The notes under the pieces: model-generated
What the model saw: the letters and a program-made list of their open reading frames with translations, nothing else
Told to the model about the DNA's origin: nothing
Databases searched by the model: none
In this document: positions 5,624-30,125 of the stretch, piece by piece
Layout: every line of letters starts with the position of its first letter
How positions within the stretch are numbered: position 1 is the first letter of the stretch
Translations under genes and position numbers: made by a program
Source of the DNA: Escherichia coli
GTDB lineage: Bacteria; Pseudomonadota; Gammaproteobacteria; Enterobacterales; Enterobacteriaceae
DNA: 64,000 bases
Strand: one strand, 5' to 3'
NCBI RefSeq assembly: GCF_022846255.1
Contig: NZ_AP025682.1

Positions 5624-7906
5624 ATGGAAAACAATCGCAATTTCCCTGCCAGACAATTTCATTCGCTCACGTTCTTTGCCGGTCTTTGTATTGGTATTAC
5701 GCCTGTGGCACAGGCACTCGCTGCCGAAGGGCAAGCTAACGCGGATGACACGCTGGTTGTCGAAGCATCAACGCCTTCGCTTTATGCGCCACAACAATCT
5801 GCCGATCCGAAATTCTCGCGTCCGGTAGCGGATACTACCCGCACGATGACGGTGATTTCTGAACAAGTGATTAAAGATCAGGGTGCAACCAACCTTACCG
5901 ACGCACTCAAAAACGTCCCCGGCGTGGGTGCGTTTTTTGCGGGTGAGAACGGTAACTCCACCACTGGCGACGCCATTTATATGCGCGGTGCCGATACCTC
6001 TAACAGTATTTATATCGATGGCATTCGCGATATCGGCAGCGTCTCGCGCGACACCTTCAATACCGAGCAGGTCGAAGTAATTAAAGGGCCGTCCGGCACC
6101 GACTACGGGCGCAGCGCACCGACAGGCTCGATCAATATGATCAGCAAACAGCCGCGCAATGATTCCGGCATTGACGCCTCCGCCAGTATTGGCAGCGCCT
6201 GGTTCCGCCGCGGCACGCTGGACGTCAATCAGGTCATTGGTGATACCACTGCGGTGCGCCTGAATGTAATGGGCGAAAAAACGCACGATGCCGGACGCGA
6301 CAAAGTCAAAAATGAGCGTTACGGCGTCGCCCCTTCTGTCGCTTTTGGCCTTGGTACAGCGAATCGTTTGTATCTTAATTATCTGCATGTCACCCAGCAC
6401 AACACGCCAGACGGCGGCATTCCGACCATCGGTTTACCGGGTTATTCTGCCCCATCTGCGGGAACAGCAGCCCTGAATCATTCCGGAAAAGTTGATACTC
6501 ATAACTTTTACGGCACAGATTCCGATTACGACGATTCGACCACCGACACCGCTACCATGCGTTTTGAGCACGACATCAACGATAACACCACCATTCGCAA
6601 CACTACGCGTTGGTCGCGCGTAAAGCAGGATTACCTGATGACGGCGATTATGGGTGGAGCGTCGAATATTACCCAGCCCACCAGCGATGTGAATAGCTGG
6701 ACGTGGTCACGCACGGCGAATACCAAAGATGTGAGTAACAAAATTCTCACCAACCAGACCAACCTGACCTCGACGTTCTATACCGGCGCTATCGGTCATG
6801 ATCTCAGTACCGGCGTGGAATTTACCCGCGAAACACAGACTAACTATGGCGTTAATCCGGTGACGTTACCGGCGGTAAATATTTATCATCCTGACAGCAG
6901 CATTCATCCCGGCGGCCTGACGCGCAACGGCGCAAACGCCAATGGTCAGACGGATACCTTCGCAATTTATGCCTTCGATACGCTGCAAATCACCCGTGAT
7001 TTTGAGCTGAACGGCGGGATCCGTCTGGATAATTATCATACTGAATATGACAGTGCTACCGCCTGCGGCGGCAGCGGGCGCGGTGCCATCACCTGCCCTG
7101 CTGGCGTGGCAAAAGGTTCTCCGGTCACCACCGTCGACACCGCCAAGTCGGGCAATCTGGTGAACTGGAAAGCCGGGGCGCTGTATCACCTGACGGAAAA
7201 CGGCAATGTCTATATTAACTATGCCGTTTCCCAGCAGCCGCCGGGCGGCAACAACTTCGCCCTTGCGCAGTCTGGCAGCGGTAACAGTGCCAACCGCACC
7301 GATTTTAAACCACAAAAAGCCAACACCAGCGAGATTGGCACCAAATGGCAGGTTCTGGATAAACGCCTGCTACTTACCGCCGCGCTGTTCCGTACTGATA
7401 TTGAAAATGAAGTTGAGCAAAATGATGACGGGACTTATTCGCAATATGGTAAGAAACGTGTCGAAGGCTACGAGATATCCGTGGCCGGGAATATCACCCC
7501 CGCATGGCAGATGATTGGCGGCTATACCCAGCAAAAAGCAACTATCAAAAACGGCAAAGATGTTGCCCAGGATGGTTCCTCATCGCTGCCGTATACCCCG
7601 GAACACGCCTTCACCTTATGGAGCCAGTATCAGGCAACCGATGATATTTCTGTTGGTGCGGGCGCACGGTATATCGGCAGTATGCATAAAGTTTCAGACG
7701 GCGCGGTGGGGACGCCAGCATTTACCGAAGGTTATTGGGTCGCCGACGCCAAACTGGGGTATCGGGTTAATCGCAATCTCGACTTCCAGCTAAACGTCTA
7801 CAACCTGTTTGATACCGATTACGTCGCCTCAATCAATAAGAGCGGCTACCGTTATCACCCGGGCGAGCCAAGAACCTTCTTGCTCACAGCTAATATGCAT
7901 TTCTGA
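5624..7906 (+). CDS. fiu: TonB-dependent catecholate siderophore receptor Fiu
   Basis: 760-aa ORF, signal peptide, TonB box, plug and beta-barrel, C-terminal aromatic residue; Fur box upstream. Confidence 0.96.
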   Translation: MENNRNFPARQFHSLTFFAGLCIGITPVAQALAAEGQANADDTLVVEASTPSLYAPQQSADPKFSRPVADTTRTMTVISEQVIKDQGATNLTDALKNVPGVGAFFAGENGNSTTGDAIYMRGADTSNSIYIDGIRDIGSVSRDTFNTEQVEVIKGPSGTDYGRSAPTGSINMISKQPRNDSGIDASASIGSAWFRRGTLDVNQVIGDTTAVRLNVMGEKTHDAGRDKVKNERYGVAPSVAFGLGTANRLYLNYLHVTQHNTPDGGIPTIGLPGYSAPSAGTAALNHSGKVDTHNFYGTDSDYDDSTTDTATMRFEHDINDNTTIRNTTRWSRVKQDYLMTAIMGGASNITQPTSDVNSWTWSRTANTKDVSNKILTNQTNLTSTFYTGAIGHDLSTGVEFTRETQTNYGVNPVTLPAVNIYHPDSSIHPGGLTRNGANANGQTDTFAIYAFDTLQITRDFELNGGIRLDNYHTEYDSATACGGSGRGAITCPAGVAKGSPVTTVDTAKSGNLVNWKAGALYHLTENGNVYINYAVSQQPPGGNNFALAQSGSGNSANRTDFKPQKANTSEIGTKWQVLDKRLLLTAALFRTDIENEVEQNDDGTYSQYGKKRVEGYEISVAGNITPAWQMIGGYTQQKATIKNGKDVAQDGSSSLPYTPEHAFTLWSQYQATDDISVGAGARYIGSMHKVSDGAVGTPAFTEGYWVADAKLGYRVNRNLDFQLNVYNLFDTDYVASINKSGYRYHPGEPRTFLLTANMHF

Positions 7907-7956
7907 TTCAGATGTGGGGCGCAAGGCTCACTAATGTTGATGGCGAGAGCAGGACT

Positions 7957-8054
7957 GCCTGATGCGCTGCGCTTATCAGGCCTACAAGGTTGTGCAATAC
8001 ACTGAATTCACATCATTTGGTAGGCCGGATAAGGCGTTCACGCCGCATCCGGCA
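7957..8054. repeat. REP elements (BIME-like pair) between fiu and ybiX
   Basis: gcctgatgcgctgcgcttatcaggcctaca and gtaggccggataaggcgttcacgccgcatccggca match the REP consensus. Confidence 0.85.
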
Positions 8055-8087
8055 CCTGAGCACCATTGCCTGCTGTTAAAAATCGGT

Positions 8088-8110
8088 GTGGGGCGCAGGC
8101 CCCACTTTTT
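8088..8110 (+). terminator. terminator-like hairpin plus T-run immediately upstream of the ybiX RBS
   Basis: gtggggcgcaggccccac followed by TTTTT, 12 nt before the ybiX ATG; the Shine-Dalgarno ggag lies just after the T-run. Confidence 0.5.
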
Positions 8111-8121
8111 GGAGAACTTGT

Positions 8122-8799
8122 ATGATGTACCACATTCCCGGCGTGTTATCGCCACAGGACGTCGCCCGTTTTCGCGAACAACTGGAACAAGCCGAATGGG
8201 TGGATGGGCGCGTCACCACCGGCGCACAAGGTGCGCAAGTTAAGAACAATCAACAAGTAGACACCCGCAGCGCCCTGTACGCCGCCCTGCAAAATGAGGT
8301 GCTGAACGCGGTTAACCAACATGCTTTGTTCTTTGCCGCGGCCTTGCCGCGTACCCTTTCCACGCCGCTGTTTAATCGCTATCAGAACAATGAAACCTAT
8401 GGTTTTCATGTGGATGGCGCAGTACGCAGCCATCCACAAAACGGCTGGATGCGCACTGACCTTTCTGCCACGCTGTTTTTAAGCGATCCAGAAAGCTACG
8501 ACGGCGGCGAACTGGTCGTTAATGACACCTTCGGGCAACATCGGGTAAAACTCCCGGCAGGCGATCTGGTGTTGTATCCCTCCAGCAGCCTGCATTGCGT
8601 GACACCCGTAACCCGCGGCGTGCGAGTGGCATCATTTATGTGGATCCAGTCGATGATCCGCGATGATAAAAAGCGCGCCATGCTGTTTGAACTGGACAAC
8701 AATATTCAGTCGCTGAAAAGCCACTACGGCGAAAGTGAAGAGATCCTGTCGCTGCTCAATCTTTATCATAATCTGCTGCGGGAATGGTCGGAGATCTGA
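8122..8799 (+). CDS. ybiX: PKHD-type Fe(II)/2-oxoglutarate-dependent hydroxylase YbiX
   Basis: ORF track 8086-8799; start at MMYHIPGVL gives 225 aa; HxD...H iron-binding motif context; downstream of fiu as in the known fiu-ybiX unit. Confidence 0.92.
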
Positions 8800-9667: not shown

Positions 9668-9744
9668 GTAGGACGGATAAGGCGTTTACGCCGCATCCGG
9701 CAACAGATGCCTGATGCGACGCTACCGCGTCTTATCAGACCTAC
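9668..9744. repeat. REP elements downstream of ybiJ
   Basis: gtaggacggataaggcgtttacgccgcatccggca and gcctgatgcgacgctaccgcgtcttatcagacctac. Confidence 0.85.
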
Positions 9745-9864
9745 AAAATCCGAACCGTTGGCTGGATCAGGCGTTTACGCTACGTTCAGCACAAGTATTT
9801 CCCTGTCTGTTTGCCGACAGACGCATATGCTCTAACCCTCATTGATCCTATGTTACCCTTGTTT

Positions 9865-9892
9865 GCCCGTCCGCCACTGGACGGGCTTTTTT

Positions 9893-9894
<2 letters not shown>
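9865..9894 (+). terminator. intrinsic terminator between convergent ybiJ and ybiC
   Basis: gcccgtccgccactggacgggc followed by TTTTTTTT. Confidence 0.7.
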
Positions 9895-14365: not shown

Positions 14366-14563
14366 ATGATGCGTAAAGCGCTTCGCGCTAAATTCGAACA
14401 ACATGCAGAACTGCGTACACTCTTGCGGGCAACCGCGTCCGCAAAACTGGTTGAGCATACGCAAAATGATGCTTACTGGGGAGATGGCGGTAATGGTCAG
14501 GGCAAGAATCGCCTGGGGTACCTTTTAATGGCGTTGCGCGGACAATTGGCTGCGGAGAAGTAA
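14366..14563 (+). pseudogene. ybiA: ybiA (NADAR-family N-glycosidase) 3' remnant; 5' two-thirds absent
   Basis: ORF 14258-14563: last about 65 aa (MRKALRAKFEQHAELR...GKNRLGYLLMALRGQLAAEK) resemble the YbiA/NADAR C-terminus; the rest of the frame reads through the dinG LexA box and start codon; full-length YbiA is 160 aa as I recall. Confidence 0.6.
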
Positions 14564-14646
14564 CGCATCGGGTGGCTTGTGGGCGTTAAAACAGAGAAAT
14601 CTTTTTGCCGCGCTCGCAAATGGCTGACAAGTGCTTGTTGTGAAAT

Positions 14647-14745
14647 GCCGGATGCGGCGCGAGCGCCTTATCCGGCCTACAAAAACATGCACATTCAATA
14701 TATTGCAGAGTTCACGTAGGCCTGATAAGCGTAGCGCATCAGGCA
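14647..14745. repeat. REP elements between ybiA remnant and rhlE
   Basis: gccggatgcggcgcgagcgccttatccggcctac and gtaggcctgataagcgtagcgcatcaggca. Confidence 0.85.
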
Positions 14746-14768
14746 GTTTTGTGTTTGTCATCAGTCTC

Positions 14769-14789
14769 ATGCCGGGCATAGCCCGGCAT
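14769..14789. terminator. palindromic hairpin just downstream of rhlE (atgccgggc-ata-gcccggcat)
   Basis: Perfect 9-bp inverted repeat 7 nt past the alternative-frame rhlE stop; no clear U-tract. Confidence 0.4.
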
Positions 14790-14795
14790 AAAAGA

Positions 14796-16149
14796 TTACT
14801 GCGCAGCGGCAGGTTTACGCGGACGGCGGCGACGTTGTTGTTCGCCTGCCGGTTTGGCATCGACGAGACGGTTTTTCTGCGGGCTTCGCGTTACCAGACT
14901 TCGCACCACTTTCCGTACGGCGTGGTTGCTGTTGACCGCGACCACCGCCCTGTCCACGACCGCCGCCACGTTGCTGGCGACCGTTCTGGATCGGTTCGGC
15001 TTTGATTGACGGGTCCGGCTCATACCCCGGAATCGCAATGCGCGGGATCTCTTTTTTCAGCAGTTTTTCGATATCACGCAGCAGTTTGTGTTCATCAACA
15101 CACACCAGCGACAATGCTTCGCCAGTTGCCGCCGCACGGCCAGTACGCCCGATACGGTGAACATAATCTTCCGGTACGTTTGGTAACTCATAGTTGACGA
15201 CGTGCGGCAACTCTTCGATATCCAGACCGCGCGCAGCGATGTCAGTTGCCACCAGTACACGAATATCGCCCGATTTAAAATCGGCCAGCGCACGAGTACG
15301 CGCACCTTGCGATTTATTACCGTGGATCGCCGCACTACGGATGCCGTCTTTATTAAGCTGTTCAGCCAGATGGTTAGCGCCATGTTTGGTACGGGTAAAC
15401 ACCAGCACCTGCTGCCAGTTCCCTTTCCCAATCATATGCGACAGCAATTCGCGTTTGCGTTTCTTATCGACAAAGTGAACGTGCTGGGTCACCTGATCAG
15501 ACGCAGTATTGCGGCGTGCCACTTCGATTTCCAGCGGGTTGTGCAACAGTTTTTCCGCCAGGGCTTTAATATCGTCAGAGAAGGTCGCGGAGAACAACAG
15601 GTTCTGGCGCTTCGCTGGCAGTTTTGTTAACACGCGACGGATATCGTGGATAAAGCCCATGTCGAGCATGCGGTCAGCTTCATCAAGGACGAGGATTTCA
15701 ACCTGATCCAGCTTCACTGCATTTTGATGTTCCAGGTCCAGCAGACGTCCCGGCGTTGCCACCAGCACATCAACGCCGCCGCGCAACTTCATCATTTGTG
15801 GGTTAATGCTGACACCGCCAAACACCACCAGCGAACGAATGTTCAGATATTTGCTGTAATCACGGACGTTTTCGCCAATCTGCGCCGCCAGTTCACGGGT
15901 CGGGGTAAGAATGAGCGCGCGTACCGGACGACGCCCTTTGGCGTGCGGCTGGCGAGTGATCAGGTGTTGCAACAACGGCAGCGTAAAGCCCGCTGTTTTG
16001 CCGGTACCGGTCTGGGCGCTGGCCATCAGGTCGCGGCCTTCCAGCACCGCAGGGATCGCCTGCTGCTGAATAGGGGTGGGTTCACGGTAACCCTGCTCGG
16101 CAACGGCGCGCAGGATATCAGGGCTTAAACCCAAAGAATCGAAAGACAT
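14796..16149 (-). CDS. rhlE: ATP-dependent RNA helicase RhlE (DEAD-box), C-terminal tail frameshifted
   Basis: ORF 14815-16149 (444 aa) has Q motif, [23 protein letters not shown]; the RhlE-like basic terminus ...[20 protein letters not shown] is in a different frame (ORF 14796-15038). Confidence 0.85.
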
Positions 16150-28987: not shown

Positions 28988-29977
28988 TTAGCCACCAATG
29001 TACGATAAGTTTTGCGTAATACCGGTGTTATTTTGATGCAGGAAATGGGTCTGTTTTTTCTCCCGCAGCGCCGCTGAAATACGCGCTTCCAGCGCCTGTT
29101 GCTGGGTATCGTCTTCCAGCAGATCGCGCAGGTTAACGCCGCCTTCACCAAACAGGCAGAGATGGAGTTTACCAATGGAGGAAACGCGCAGGCGGTTGCA
29201 AGTGGCGCAGAAGTCTTTTTCATACGGCATGATAAGGCCAATCTCTCCGGCGTAATCCGGATGACAAAAGACTTGCGCGGGACCGTCGCTGCGTTGACGT
29301 AATTGGTGGATCCAGCCGCGACGCAGTAGCTCGTCACGCAGAACCTGACCAGAGATGTGATGCTTACGGAAGAGCTCGCTGCCCTCGCCCGTTTCCATCA
29401 ATTCGATGAAACGCAGCTGGATAGGGCGATGCTGGATCCAGTTCAGAAAGGTGTCGAGCTGATGATGATTAACATCACGCATCAGCACGGTATTGACTTT
29501 GACCTTCTCAAAACCGGCCTCAAATGCAGCATCGATTCCTGCCATGACCTGGTTGAATTTATCCTGCCCGGTAATGGCATGAAACTGGCGAGCGTCAAGG
29601 CTATCAACGCTGACGTTGATGCCAGTAAGTCCAGCATCGCGCCAGTTCGCCACATCGCGTTCCAGACGGTAACCATTGGTGGTGACCGCAATCTGGCGGA
29701 TAGCGTCGTTTTCCCGCACAGCGGCGATGATATCGGTAAAGTCGCGGCGTAAAGATGGCTCACCGCCCGTCAGACGGACTTTTTCGGTGCCAAGACTGGC
29801 GAAGGCGCGCGTAACCCGGCGAATTTCATCGACGGTAAGAAAGCCTTTATTGGTGACGCCGCTCGGTTTGTAGCCATCCGGCAGGCAGTAGGTGCAACGA
29901 AAGTTACACACATCGGTAATCGACAGGCGCAAGTAGTAAAACTTACGCGCAAATGCATCAGTCAGTTGTGAAGCCAT
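28988..29977 (-). CDS. moaA: GTP 3',8-cyclase (radical SAM)
   Basis: ORF track 28988-30058; 329 aa from [31 protein letters not shown] (CxxxCxxC radical SAM motif). Confidence 0.96.
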
Positions 29978-29979
29978 GT

Positions 29980-30125
29980 ACACCTTTCCAGATACGGGAG
30001 GCGAAGTCATTTCTTCCTTCGCCCTGGTGGCAATCTTTACAAGCATTGTCACGGCCAAAGCACCGTATCAGTTGACCCAGGTGCAGAGGCTAGAGTGTTT
30101 AGTGGTTAAGCCGATACTAGCGTGT
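29980..30125 (-). promoter_or_regulatory. moaA 5' leader; expected location of the Moco riboswitch RNA motif
   Basis: Long GC-structured leader directly upstream of moaA; assigned from known biology of the E. coli moaA leader, boundaries approximate and not folded. Confidence 0.5.

Follow-up and report, generated by a model that had tools for sequence, protein, structure and literature searches.

The stretch of Escherichia coli DNA analyzed here (64,000 nucleotides, hereafter the window) carries fiu, which encodes a catecholate siderophore receptor (5624–7906, with the stop codon TGA at 7904–7906), followed on the same, plus strand by ybiX, which encodes a PKHD-type Fe(II)/2-oxoglutarate hydroxylase of 225 aa (8122–8799, with the start ATGATG at 8122–8127). 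These calls come from the open reading frame list and annotation (for fiu, that of a RefSeq genome with 100% identity), which also place ybiI and ybiJ on the plus strand; the spacer features described below are given for the plus strand as well. Between the two genes, a hairpin with a perfect 7-bp stem, six G-C pairs and a 4-nt loop (GTGGGGC-GCAG-GCCCCAC, 8088–8105) runs directly into five T residues (8106–8110), and the ybiX Shine-Dalgarno motif GGAG (8111–8114), located 7 nt 5′ of the ATG and kept as GGAG or AGGAG in relatives, starts on the very next base. The initial annotation of this DNA had reported a hairpin and TTTTT just before the ybiX ribosome-binding site, and both are present at 8088–8110; its distance of 12 nt from the T-run to the ATG agrees, within counting convention, with the 11 bases counted in the window sequence.

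The hairpin has the form of an intrinsic terminator. Its stem and loop lie within the ranges for this class (5–14 bp and 3–8 nt), and TTTTT at 8106–8110 provides the U-tract. Folded in isolation it reaches −15.6 kcal/mol, a value matched by one in 200 shuffles, and it is retained in both the minimum free energy (MFE) and the centroid folds of 7900–8130. A strict terminator pattern (at least seven Watson-Crick pairs, at least six of them G-C, a loop of 3–8 nt, and at least five T in the next eight bases) occurs at two loci on either strand of the 64-kb window, namely 8088–8110 and the ybiJ/ZbiJ terminator (9865–9886), compared with an expectation of 0.17 ± 0.52 loci from 30 dinucleotide shuffles of the window; the observation is real and beyond chance. 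A consensus terminator scan scored the hairpin as terminator-like on both strands, and a minus-strand terminator was rejected: the T-run on that strand is 5 nt off the stem and part of a repeat-element motif (the BIME-1 B motif, see below), and there is no converging gene.

The spacer that contains the hairpin differs among E. coli strains. It is 215 nt long in the window and 41 nt long in K-12, and the 174 additional bases consist of a complete BIME-1 and a second copy of the hairpin. Starting 7 nt past the fiu stop, the left copy (TGTGGGGCGCAAGGCTCACT, 7913–7932) is degenerate in that its stem is weak (−8.1 to −8.6 kcal/mol) and the T-run is missing, as seen from the direct repeat, the folds, and alignment to the K-12 empty site; it matches 8087–8106, the intact terminator hairpin, over 20 nt at 85% identity and a distance of 174 nt. 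The initial annotation had noticed a related motif after the fiu stop, which is real but lies at 7911–7931, one base from the 7910–7930 reported, and it had missed the origin of this motif as a duplication made with the BIME-1 insertion. The BIME-1 itself follows in the order A flank motif (TAATGTTGATGGCGAGAGCAGGACTG, 7932–7957), Y-type REP or palindromic unit (7958–7985), L linker (7986–8019), Z1-type REP (8020–8054), and B flank motif (8055–8086), an arrangement that aligns with the copies at rsmS-mscK and yhaH-yqjG; the A and B motifs also appear in a survey of 29 BIME-1 sites, and the two REPs are supported by their inverted repeats. Inverted Y and Z1 REPs joined by a long L linker, the hallmark of BIME-1 (PMC3333891, PMC1187871), are thus found at 7932–8086. 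The linker differs from the common TGCAATATATTGAAT core and reads TGCAATACACTGAAT, and the putative IHF-site region described in PMC3333891 is degenerate here. Rfam returned no family at the hairpin, its sole match being to naRNA4 (REP325-derived RNA) at 8023–8101, where a score of 48.1 bits against a gathering score of 59.5 means that the segment, which overlaps the Z1 REP, is not a member; the resemblance arises because REP sequence is shared.

Whole-unit presence or absence among isolates is known behavior of BIME-1 (PMC1187871), and it is also what the fiu-ybiX spacer displays: the 174 bp are present in 557 of 5,426 complete E. coli genomes and missing from the rest. Strains with the insertion include F11 and NRG 857C, as well as CFT073, whose 215-nt spacer is identical to that of the window, and the insertion is also found in E. 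whittamii and another Escherichia species; the short form is found in K-12, B, Sakai, and 042. In more than 30 other genera the spacer is short and holds one hairpin only, which indicates that the insertion is the derived state. The BIME-1 was inserted in front of an existing terminator and the hairpin was copied. The related motif downstream of fiu is accounted for by this event, which also moved the terminator from 7 to 181 nt past the fiu stop codon.

Evidence from RNA comes from K-12, where the spacer reads TGA-ttcagat-hairpin-TTTTT-ggagaaattgt-ATG and the hairpin, T-run, and Shine-Dalgarno motif have the same sequence as in the window. In MG1655 coordinates, ybiX lies at 838530–839207(−) and fiu at 839249–841531(−), which puts the T-run at 839223–839219. 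The Term-seq data of Adams et al. 2021 (PMC7815308, Supplementary file 1, M63 glucose sheet) list 839219(−) as the “primary” 3′ end of fiu, and the accompanying 61-nt context places it on the fifth T, with which the run ends and which corresponds to position 8110 of the window. The mapping of 3′ ends, which the initial annotation had named as a check, therefore supports a terminator, on the basis of K-12 data and the short 41-nt spacer; the RNA-seq expression values below likewise derive from K-12 strains rather than from the 215-nt-spacer allele. Another 3′ end in the same M63 sample falls within ybiX (PMC7815308). Neither fiu nor ybiX is listed among the Rho regions that Adams et al. tabulated for LB medium, in which fiu is poorly expressed.

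Several observations indicate that fiu and ybiX belong to one transcription unit, with the hairpin located between its promoter and ybiX. The two genes are handled as a single Fur-repressed operon (PMC4676285; PMC10164565 Dataset 2), the Fur-1 iModulon contains fiu, ybiX, and ybiI together, and both fiu and ybiX are serum-induced in an extraintestinal pathogenic (ExPEC) strain. Upon fur deletion, the log2 fold change of ybiX tracks that of fiu in eight strains of the Fur pan-regulon table, and a promoter scan of the spacer (7907–8121) found no promoter-like site. This co-regulation and the lack of a promoter-like site in the spacer bear out the proposal that ybiX expression depends on read-through. 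CFT073 is the only one of the nine strains without a ybiX value in the Fur pan-regulon table, which is uninformative on expression: the legend defines blanks as “not conserved in pan-genome analysis”, and some plainly conserved genes are blank as well, as with tonB for Sakai and ybiI for MG1655. A literature search with the locus tags c0889 and c0890 retrieved nothing relevant.

Transcript levels drop sharply across the hairpin. In the expression data of PMC10164565, fiu and ybiX stand at 40.3/36.4 and 9.8/10.0 in wild-type MG1655 (ybiX/fiu 0.26), at 1862/1665 and 387/374 in the MG1655 fur mutant (0.22), and at 2375/2334 and 405/393 in the W3110 fur mutant (0.17), in units that are unstated and that we judged to be length-normalized because thrA, thrB, and thrC read 1789, 1462, and 1126 despite 2.6-fold length differences. 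The step-down from fiu to ybiX in K-12 is accordingly 4.6- to 5.9-fold, and some four fifths of the signal disappears past the hairpin with or without repression by Fur; if the units were not length-normalized, the per-base ybiX/fiu ratio would be 0.73 in MG1655 and 0.57 in W3110.

Based on these results, we consider it probable (roughly 0.75) that the hairpin is a Rho-independent, leaky terminator of fiu located inside the Fur-controlled fiu-ybiX(-ybiI) unit. RNA polymerase starting from the fiu promoter would transcribe the G+C-rich hairpin and U5, and most transcripts would stop at the U-tract, leaving a fiu message whose 3′ end would then be protected by the hairpin. The minority of transcripts that read through would include the ybiX ribosome-binding site, whose first base adjoins the U-tract, so that leaky termination would set ybiX mRNA at about one fifth of fiu mRNA. 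What has been observed directly is the structure and its conservation, the 3′ end formed in vivo by K-12, the shared regulation of the two genes, and the lower RNA level of ybiX; that the 3′ end is made by termination rather than by trimming is our inference. The hairpin belongs to a familiar class and is not unusual within it, and its 3′ end in K-12 has already been catalogued by experiment.

Leaky intrinsic terminators within operons set the ratio of upstream to downstream gene expression, with rplL-rpoB and rpsU-dnaG-rpoD as examples. The fiu-ybiX element resembles these in that a G+C-rich stem and U-tract separate co-transcribed genes, an RNA 3′ end maps to the U-tract, and read-through supplies the downstream gene at a lower, fixed level. 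It differs in that its U-tract abuts the ybiX Shine-Dalgarno motif and in that the ancestral spacer is just 41 nt long.

Loci encoding YbiX relatives were compared, and in approximately 40 species of Enterobacterales the fiu stop is separated from the ybiX Shine-Dalgarno motif by a spacer with a strong hairpin. The stem GTGGGGC/GCCCCAC is common from Escherichia to Serratia, Rouxiella, and Pantoea, with variable loops and flanks, and other, equally complementary stems occur in Klebsiella and Raoultella (CGGGGCG/CGCCCCG), in Tatumella (three different ones), and in one further enterobacterium. Aligned with a covariance model, these loci show pairing in 93% of cells versus 48%–64% when partners are slid, and compensatory changes affect four of the seven stem pairs; the observed value was reached by one of 500 shuffles on four of five measures and by six of 500 on the covariation score. 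This alignment places the Klebsiella-type stems, which are offset in a MAFFT alignment, better, but it is fitted to the structure, and the covariation comes mostly from a few lineages, most species being close relatives with the same stem sequence. Comparative sequence analysis thus offers support for a conserved stem that is moderate and falls short of decisive. A second covariance-model match in one locus (L006, 2392–2442, 26 bits) was set aside as a chance match in the diverged ybiI region. Spacing is constrained as well: the stem starts 5–10 nt past the stop in 30 of the 34 short-form loci, and 16–22 nt separate it from the ATG. Outside the Enterobacterales, some beta-proteobacterial gene pairs have a hairpin in the spacer and many have spacers of 6–28 nt and none.

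The U-tract is less conserved than the stem. Among other genera, the eight bases following the stem contain one to seven T (median four); there are five to seven T in Escherichia, Kluyvera, and Pantoea, while Citrobacter has TTTCAGG or TCTCAGG and one Leclercia has CCTCCGG. Because several genera have a poor U-tract or none, canonical termination cannot be the sole reason for conservation of the hairpin, and to judge from these sequences, part of the selection may be for a hairpin that protects the 3′ end rather than for canonical termination. Taken further, the hairpin could be mainly an element of stability or processing, with transcription ending elsewhere (for example, Rho-dependently in or after ybiX), exonucleases trimming back to the stem, and the ybiX portion decaying faster. 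Retention of the hairpin where the U-tract is poor would fit this explanation, as would a 3′ end located 5 nt past the stem, where a 3′-to-5′ exonuclease might stall or trim, the 3′ end inside ybiX in K-12, and the documented ability of REP and hairpin elements to stabilize upstream messages. The E. coli 3′ end, however, coincides exactly with the last base of U5 behind a canonical stem, as is characteristic of intrinsic termination, and we regard trimming as an unlikely main role. The two are also not exclusive, as terminator hairpins stabilize messages too.

Ribosome-coupled attenuators of E. coli such as rph-pyrE and pyrBI contain UTP-sensing U-rich pause sites, and their read-through is demonstrably regulated. 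At fiu-ybiX, the hairpin similarly lies a few nucleotides past the upstream stop codon and could be blocked by a ribosome at that stop, whereas no U-rich pause site was found there and the 181-nt distance in the window loses this geometry. A regulated attenuator of this type, in which read-through varies with the closeness of ribosome and polymerase and ybiX responds to a signal, would draw on the 5–10-nt spacing of most short-form loci (30 of 34) and on the strong ribosome sensitivity of terminators so near a stop codon. Against it, the stop codon of the window lies 181 nt from the stem, making masking impossible, no antiterminator or pause-rich leader was found (predicted folds of 7900–8130 and of the short form contain no competing antiterminator fold), no signal is known, and ybiX/fiu in MG1655 is about equal with Fur repressing (0.26) and in the fur mutant (0.22), the sole comparison of this kind. 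We therefore consider signal-responsive attenuation improbable. The suggestion in the initial annotation of an attenuator that makes ybiX conditional on read-through holds for the terminator and the dependence on read-through; for conditional, signal-dependent control, the lack of an antiterminator fold and the near-constant MG1655 ratio speak against it. An alternative structure, ribosome, or ligand that would block the hairpin is likewise not found in the window, and only in the short-form allele, with the stop 7 nt from the stem, is ribosome masking geometrically possible.

It had also been suggested that the hairpin sequesters the ybiX ribosome-binding site, in which case ybiX would be translated only when ribosomes finishing fiu melt the structure (translational coupling). 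Two ensemble-folding analyses with shuffled controls, covering 33–34 species, addressed this, the earlier one being narrower with the same result. Predictions for the K-12 short form are favorable, with the end of fiu and the spacer pairing with the ybiX Shine-Dalgarno motif and AUG beneath the hairpin at a probability of 0.79 (reached by 3% of shuffles) and a 101-nt MFE of −34.9 kcal/mol (z = −2.6), and in the window the MFE fold of 7900–8130 pairs UUUCUGA with UUGGAGA. The window ensemble gives a pairing probability of only 0.08 between the initiation region and upstream RNA, with 44% of the initiation region unpaired, as in shuffled controls; there is no excess over shuffles across 34 species (mean upstream pairing 0.20 versus 0.23 shuffled, only three species falling below the 10% tail), and the hairpin alone leaves the Shine-Dalgarno motif free. 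Predicted only in short-form E. coli, sequestration was rejected as a conserved feature and for the window, where by these folding models it appears close to refuted, and as a general explanation it is very improbable. That the hairpin is functionless, a chance palindrome or by-product of BIME-1 insertion, might be supposed from its position beside a mobile repeat of a kind that creates palindromes, but this is refuted by its occurrence where no BIME-1 is present, in about nine tenths of E. coli genomes and approximately 40 other species, by a pattern far beyond chance, and by the RNA 3′ end that maps to it.

The lambda tR2 terminator is nearly fully repressed when located 8–9 bp past a stop codon and reaches an efficiency of approximately 0.9 beyond 30 bp (Li et al., PMC4824070). 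This quantitative rule is applied here to the fiu terminator, with the differences that tR2 was measured in a synthetic reporter and is another terminator, and that the K-12 fiu terminator at 7 nt still produces an approximately 5-fold step-down. By the tR2 rule and the conserved spacing of 5–10 nt, a ribosome finishing fiu would damp the terminator, which would help explain ybiX expression. Given the 4.6- to 5.9-fold step-down in K-12 despite a stop 7 nt upstream, masking, if any, would be partial. By analogy, a ribosome finishing fiu on the ancestral 41-nt spacer would partly mask the hairpin and tune read-through. In the BIME-1 allele this masking would be lost, with 181 nt and two extra REP hairpins between stop and stem, and ybiX per fiu should fall. 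Approximately 10% of E. coli, including CFT073, would thus be expected to express ybiX and fiu at a ratio unlike that of K-12.

REP elements are also located inside an operon at malE-malF. Another such case is REP325 in yjdM-yjdN, and REPs within operons have been described as partial Rho-dependent terminators and stabilizers of upstream messages (bioRxiv 10.64898/2026.03.23.713779). The window BIME-1 is like REP325 and the malE-malF REPs in lying between co-transcribed genes, where such elements attenuate downstream transcription, stabilize the upstream message, and vary by strain. It differs from them in preceding an existing intrinsic terminator rather than replacing one.

The duplication of the hairpin is not confined to fiu-ybiX. 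A scan for the BIME-1 Y-L junction retrieved 120 contigs that collapse to 29 distinct sites; at seven of these, the left flank aligns with the right flank of its own site above the 99th percentile of mismatched flank pairs (eight above the 95th). These flank repeats are 17–25 nt long and correspond to the local hairpin; the left copy always ends 20–27 nt ahead of the Y REP, the right copy invariably begins 28–35 nt past the Z1 REP, and a T-run follows the right copy only, in most cases. At rutG-ymdF, metE-ysgA, and fiu-ybiX, the empty allele has one hairpin and the filled allele has two plus the BIME-1, being 172–174 bp longer. We tentatively propose, at slightly less than even odds, that BIME-1 integrates at the 3′ foot of an existing terminator hairpin and duplicates the whole hairpin (17–25 bp), such that the element comes to be transcribed with a proximal copy that decays on one side and a distal terminator that stays intact on the other, and that at fiu-ybiX this moved a ribosome-masked terminator from 7 to 181 nt past the stop, altering the ybiX:fiu ratio in approximately 10% of E. 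coli. Such a footprint would suggest staggered cuts flanking an extruded palindrome. The mechanism of BIME-1 insertion was termed “not fully established” in a 2026 study, and hairpin duplication at BIME-1 borders is not described in the reviews and RAYT papers searched, a set that did not include the 1997 paper on BIME polymorphism (Bachellier et al.), making the novelty of this footprint uncertain.

Pairs of a TonB-dependent receptor and a 2OG-Fe(II) dioxygenase, namely fiu-ybiX, piuA-piuC, and cciT-cciO, are presented in PMC12004947 as a conserved Fur-controlled two-gene module; the portion of that work considered here deals with protein function, and the intercistronic hairpin does not figure there. 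The fiu-ybiX module bears on the uptake of catecholates and cefiderocol, and the terminator documents how the ratio of receptor to dioxygenase message is fixed. The stakes of the terminator finding itself are small, that of a control element kept across Enterobacterales, and the polymorphism and the duplication footprint are more worthy of follow-up. As a common natural polymorphism, identical in the well-studied CFT073, the insertion is a ready test of ribosome masking and of the effects of REPs within operons, and hairpin duplication offers a concrete lead, open to checking, on the insertion of these abundant elements.

The local terminator hairpin was found to flank BIME-1 elements as imperfect direct repeats of 17–25 nt, which sit exactly at the element borders, where the A and B motifs end on their outer side. 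This observation covers 7913–8106 and ~14560–14800 (− strand) in the window, and ten comparison loci (L084, L085, L091, L098, L101, L103, L114, L117, L124, and L179). Three sites are polymorphic (fiu-ybiX, rutG-ymdF, and metE-ysgA), and at each of them a single hairpin is present in the empty allele (that is, without BIME-1), compared with two in the filled allele. Comparison of each site's own pair of flanks with mismatched flank pairs placed the own pair above the 99th percentile at 7 of 29 BIME-1 sites. The second BIME-1 of the window (14600–14795, − strand) is located downstream of a 444-aa open reading frame (14815–16149), putatively rhlE based on synteny; its proximal side has a perfect hairpin, ATGCCGGGCTATGCCCGGCAT, which the distal side resembles weakly.

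Spacers of receptor-dioxygenase gene pairs were also compared across other taxa. Pseudocitrobacter spacers (L024, L027, and L028; ~1436–1500) have a REP-like palindrome (GCGCTGCGCTT...AAGCGCAGCGC) instead of the GTGGGGC hairpin, placing a repeat element at the terminator-hairpin position, adjoining the ybiX Shine-Dalgarno sequence. Several beta-proteobacterial spacers (L053, L068, L071, L072, L075, L079, and L083; ~1430–1500) contain a G+C-rich hairpin followed by a T-run, and the hairpins of these distant pairs are unrelated in sequence. Many other distant pairs are separated by a spacer of 6–28 nt that lacks a hairpin. The ybiI region of Escherichia sp. MOD1-EC7003 (L006, 2230–2450) has an in-frame stop and is diverged downstream, and a weak covariance-model match there (26 bits) appears to be due to chance.

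Further RNA features were identified around fiu, ybiX, and ybiJ. Within the ybiX reading frame, a long imperfect hairpin (8419–8466, +) is followed by CCTTTCT, and its K-12 equivalent, 838863(−), is a Term-seq 3′ end of class "internal"; transcripts may end prematurely or be processed there. An ORF-internal 3′ end has likewise been reported in M63 medium at K-12 841454(−), 77 nt past the fiu start codon (Adams et al., PMC7815308), with its counterpart placed at ~5701 (+) by offset only. Directly 3′ of ybiJ is a BIME-2-like Z2-Y REP pair (9668–9744, +); similarity between REP sequences brings it above the Rfam gathering threshold for naRNA4 (72.7 bits). The ybiJ 3′ region (~9798–9894, +) has a strong terminator (9865–9886 plus T8) and corresponds by offset to the annotated K-12 small RNA ZbiJ, 837435–837531(−), with the small protein gene ybiE lying opposite. 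Elsewhere, a molybdenum cofactor riboswitch (29965–30109, −; Rfam RF01055, 103 bits) is presumably the moaA leader.

For the short-form spacer of K-12 (L001, 3190–3290), a long helix is predicted under the terminator hairpin (−34.9 kcal/mol, z = −2.6), in which the final fiu codons (AAUAUGCAUUUCUGA) together with the spacer are base-paired to the Shine-Dalgarno sequence and AUG of ybiX. This predicted helix is confined to short-form E. coli, and is disrupted by the BIME-1 of the window.
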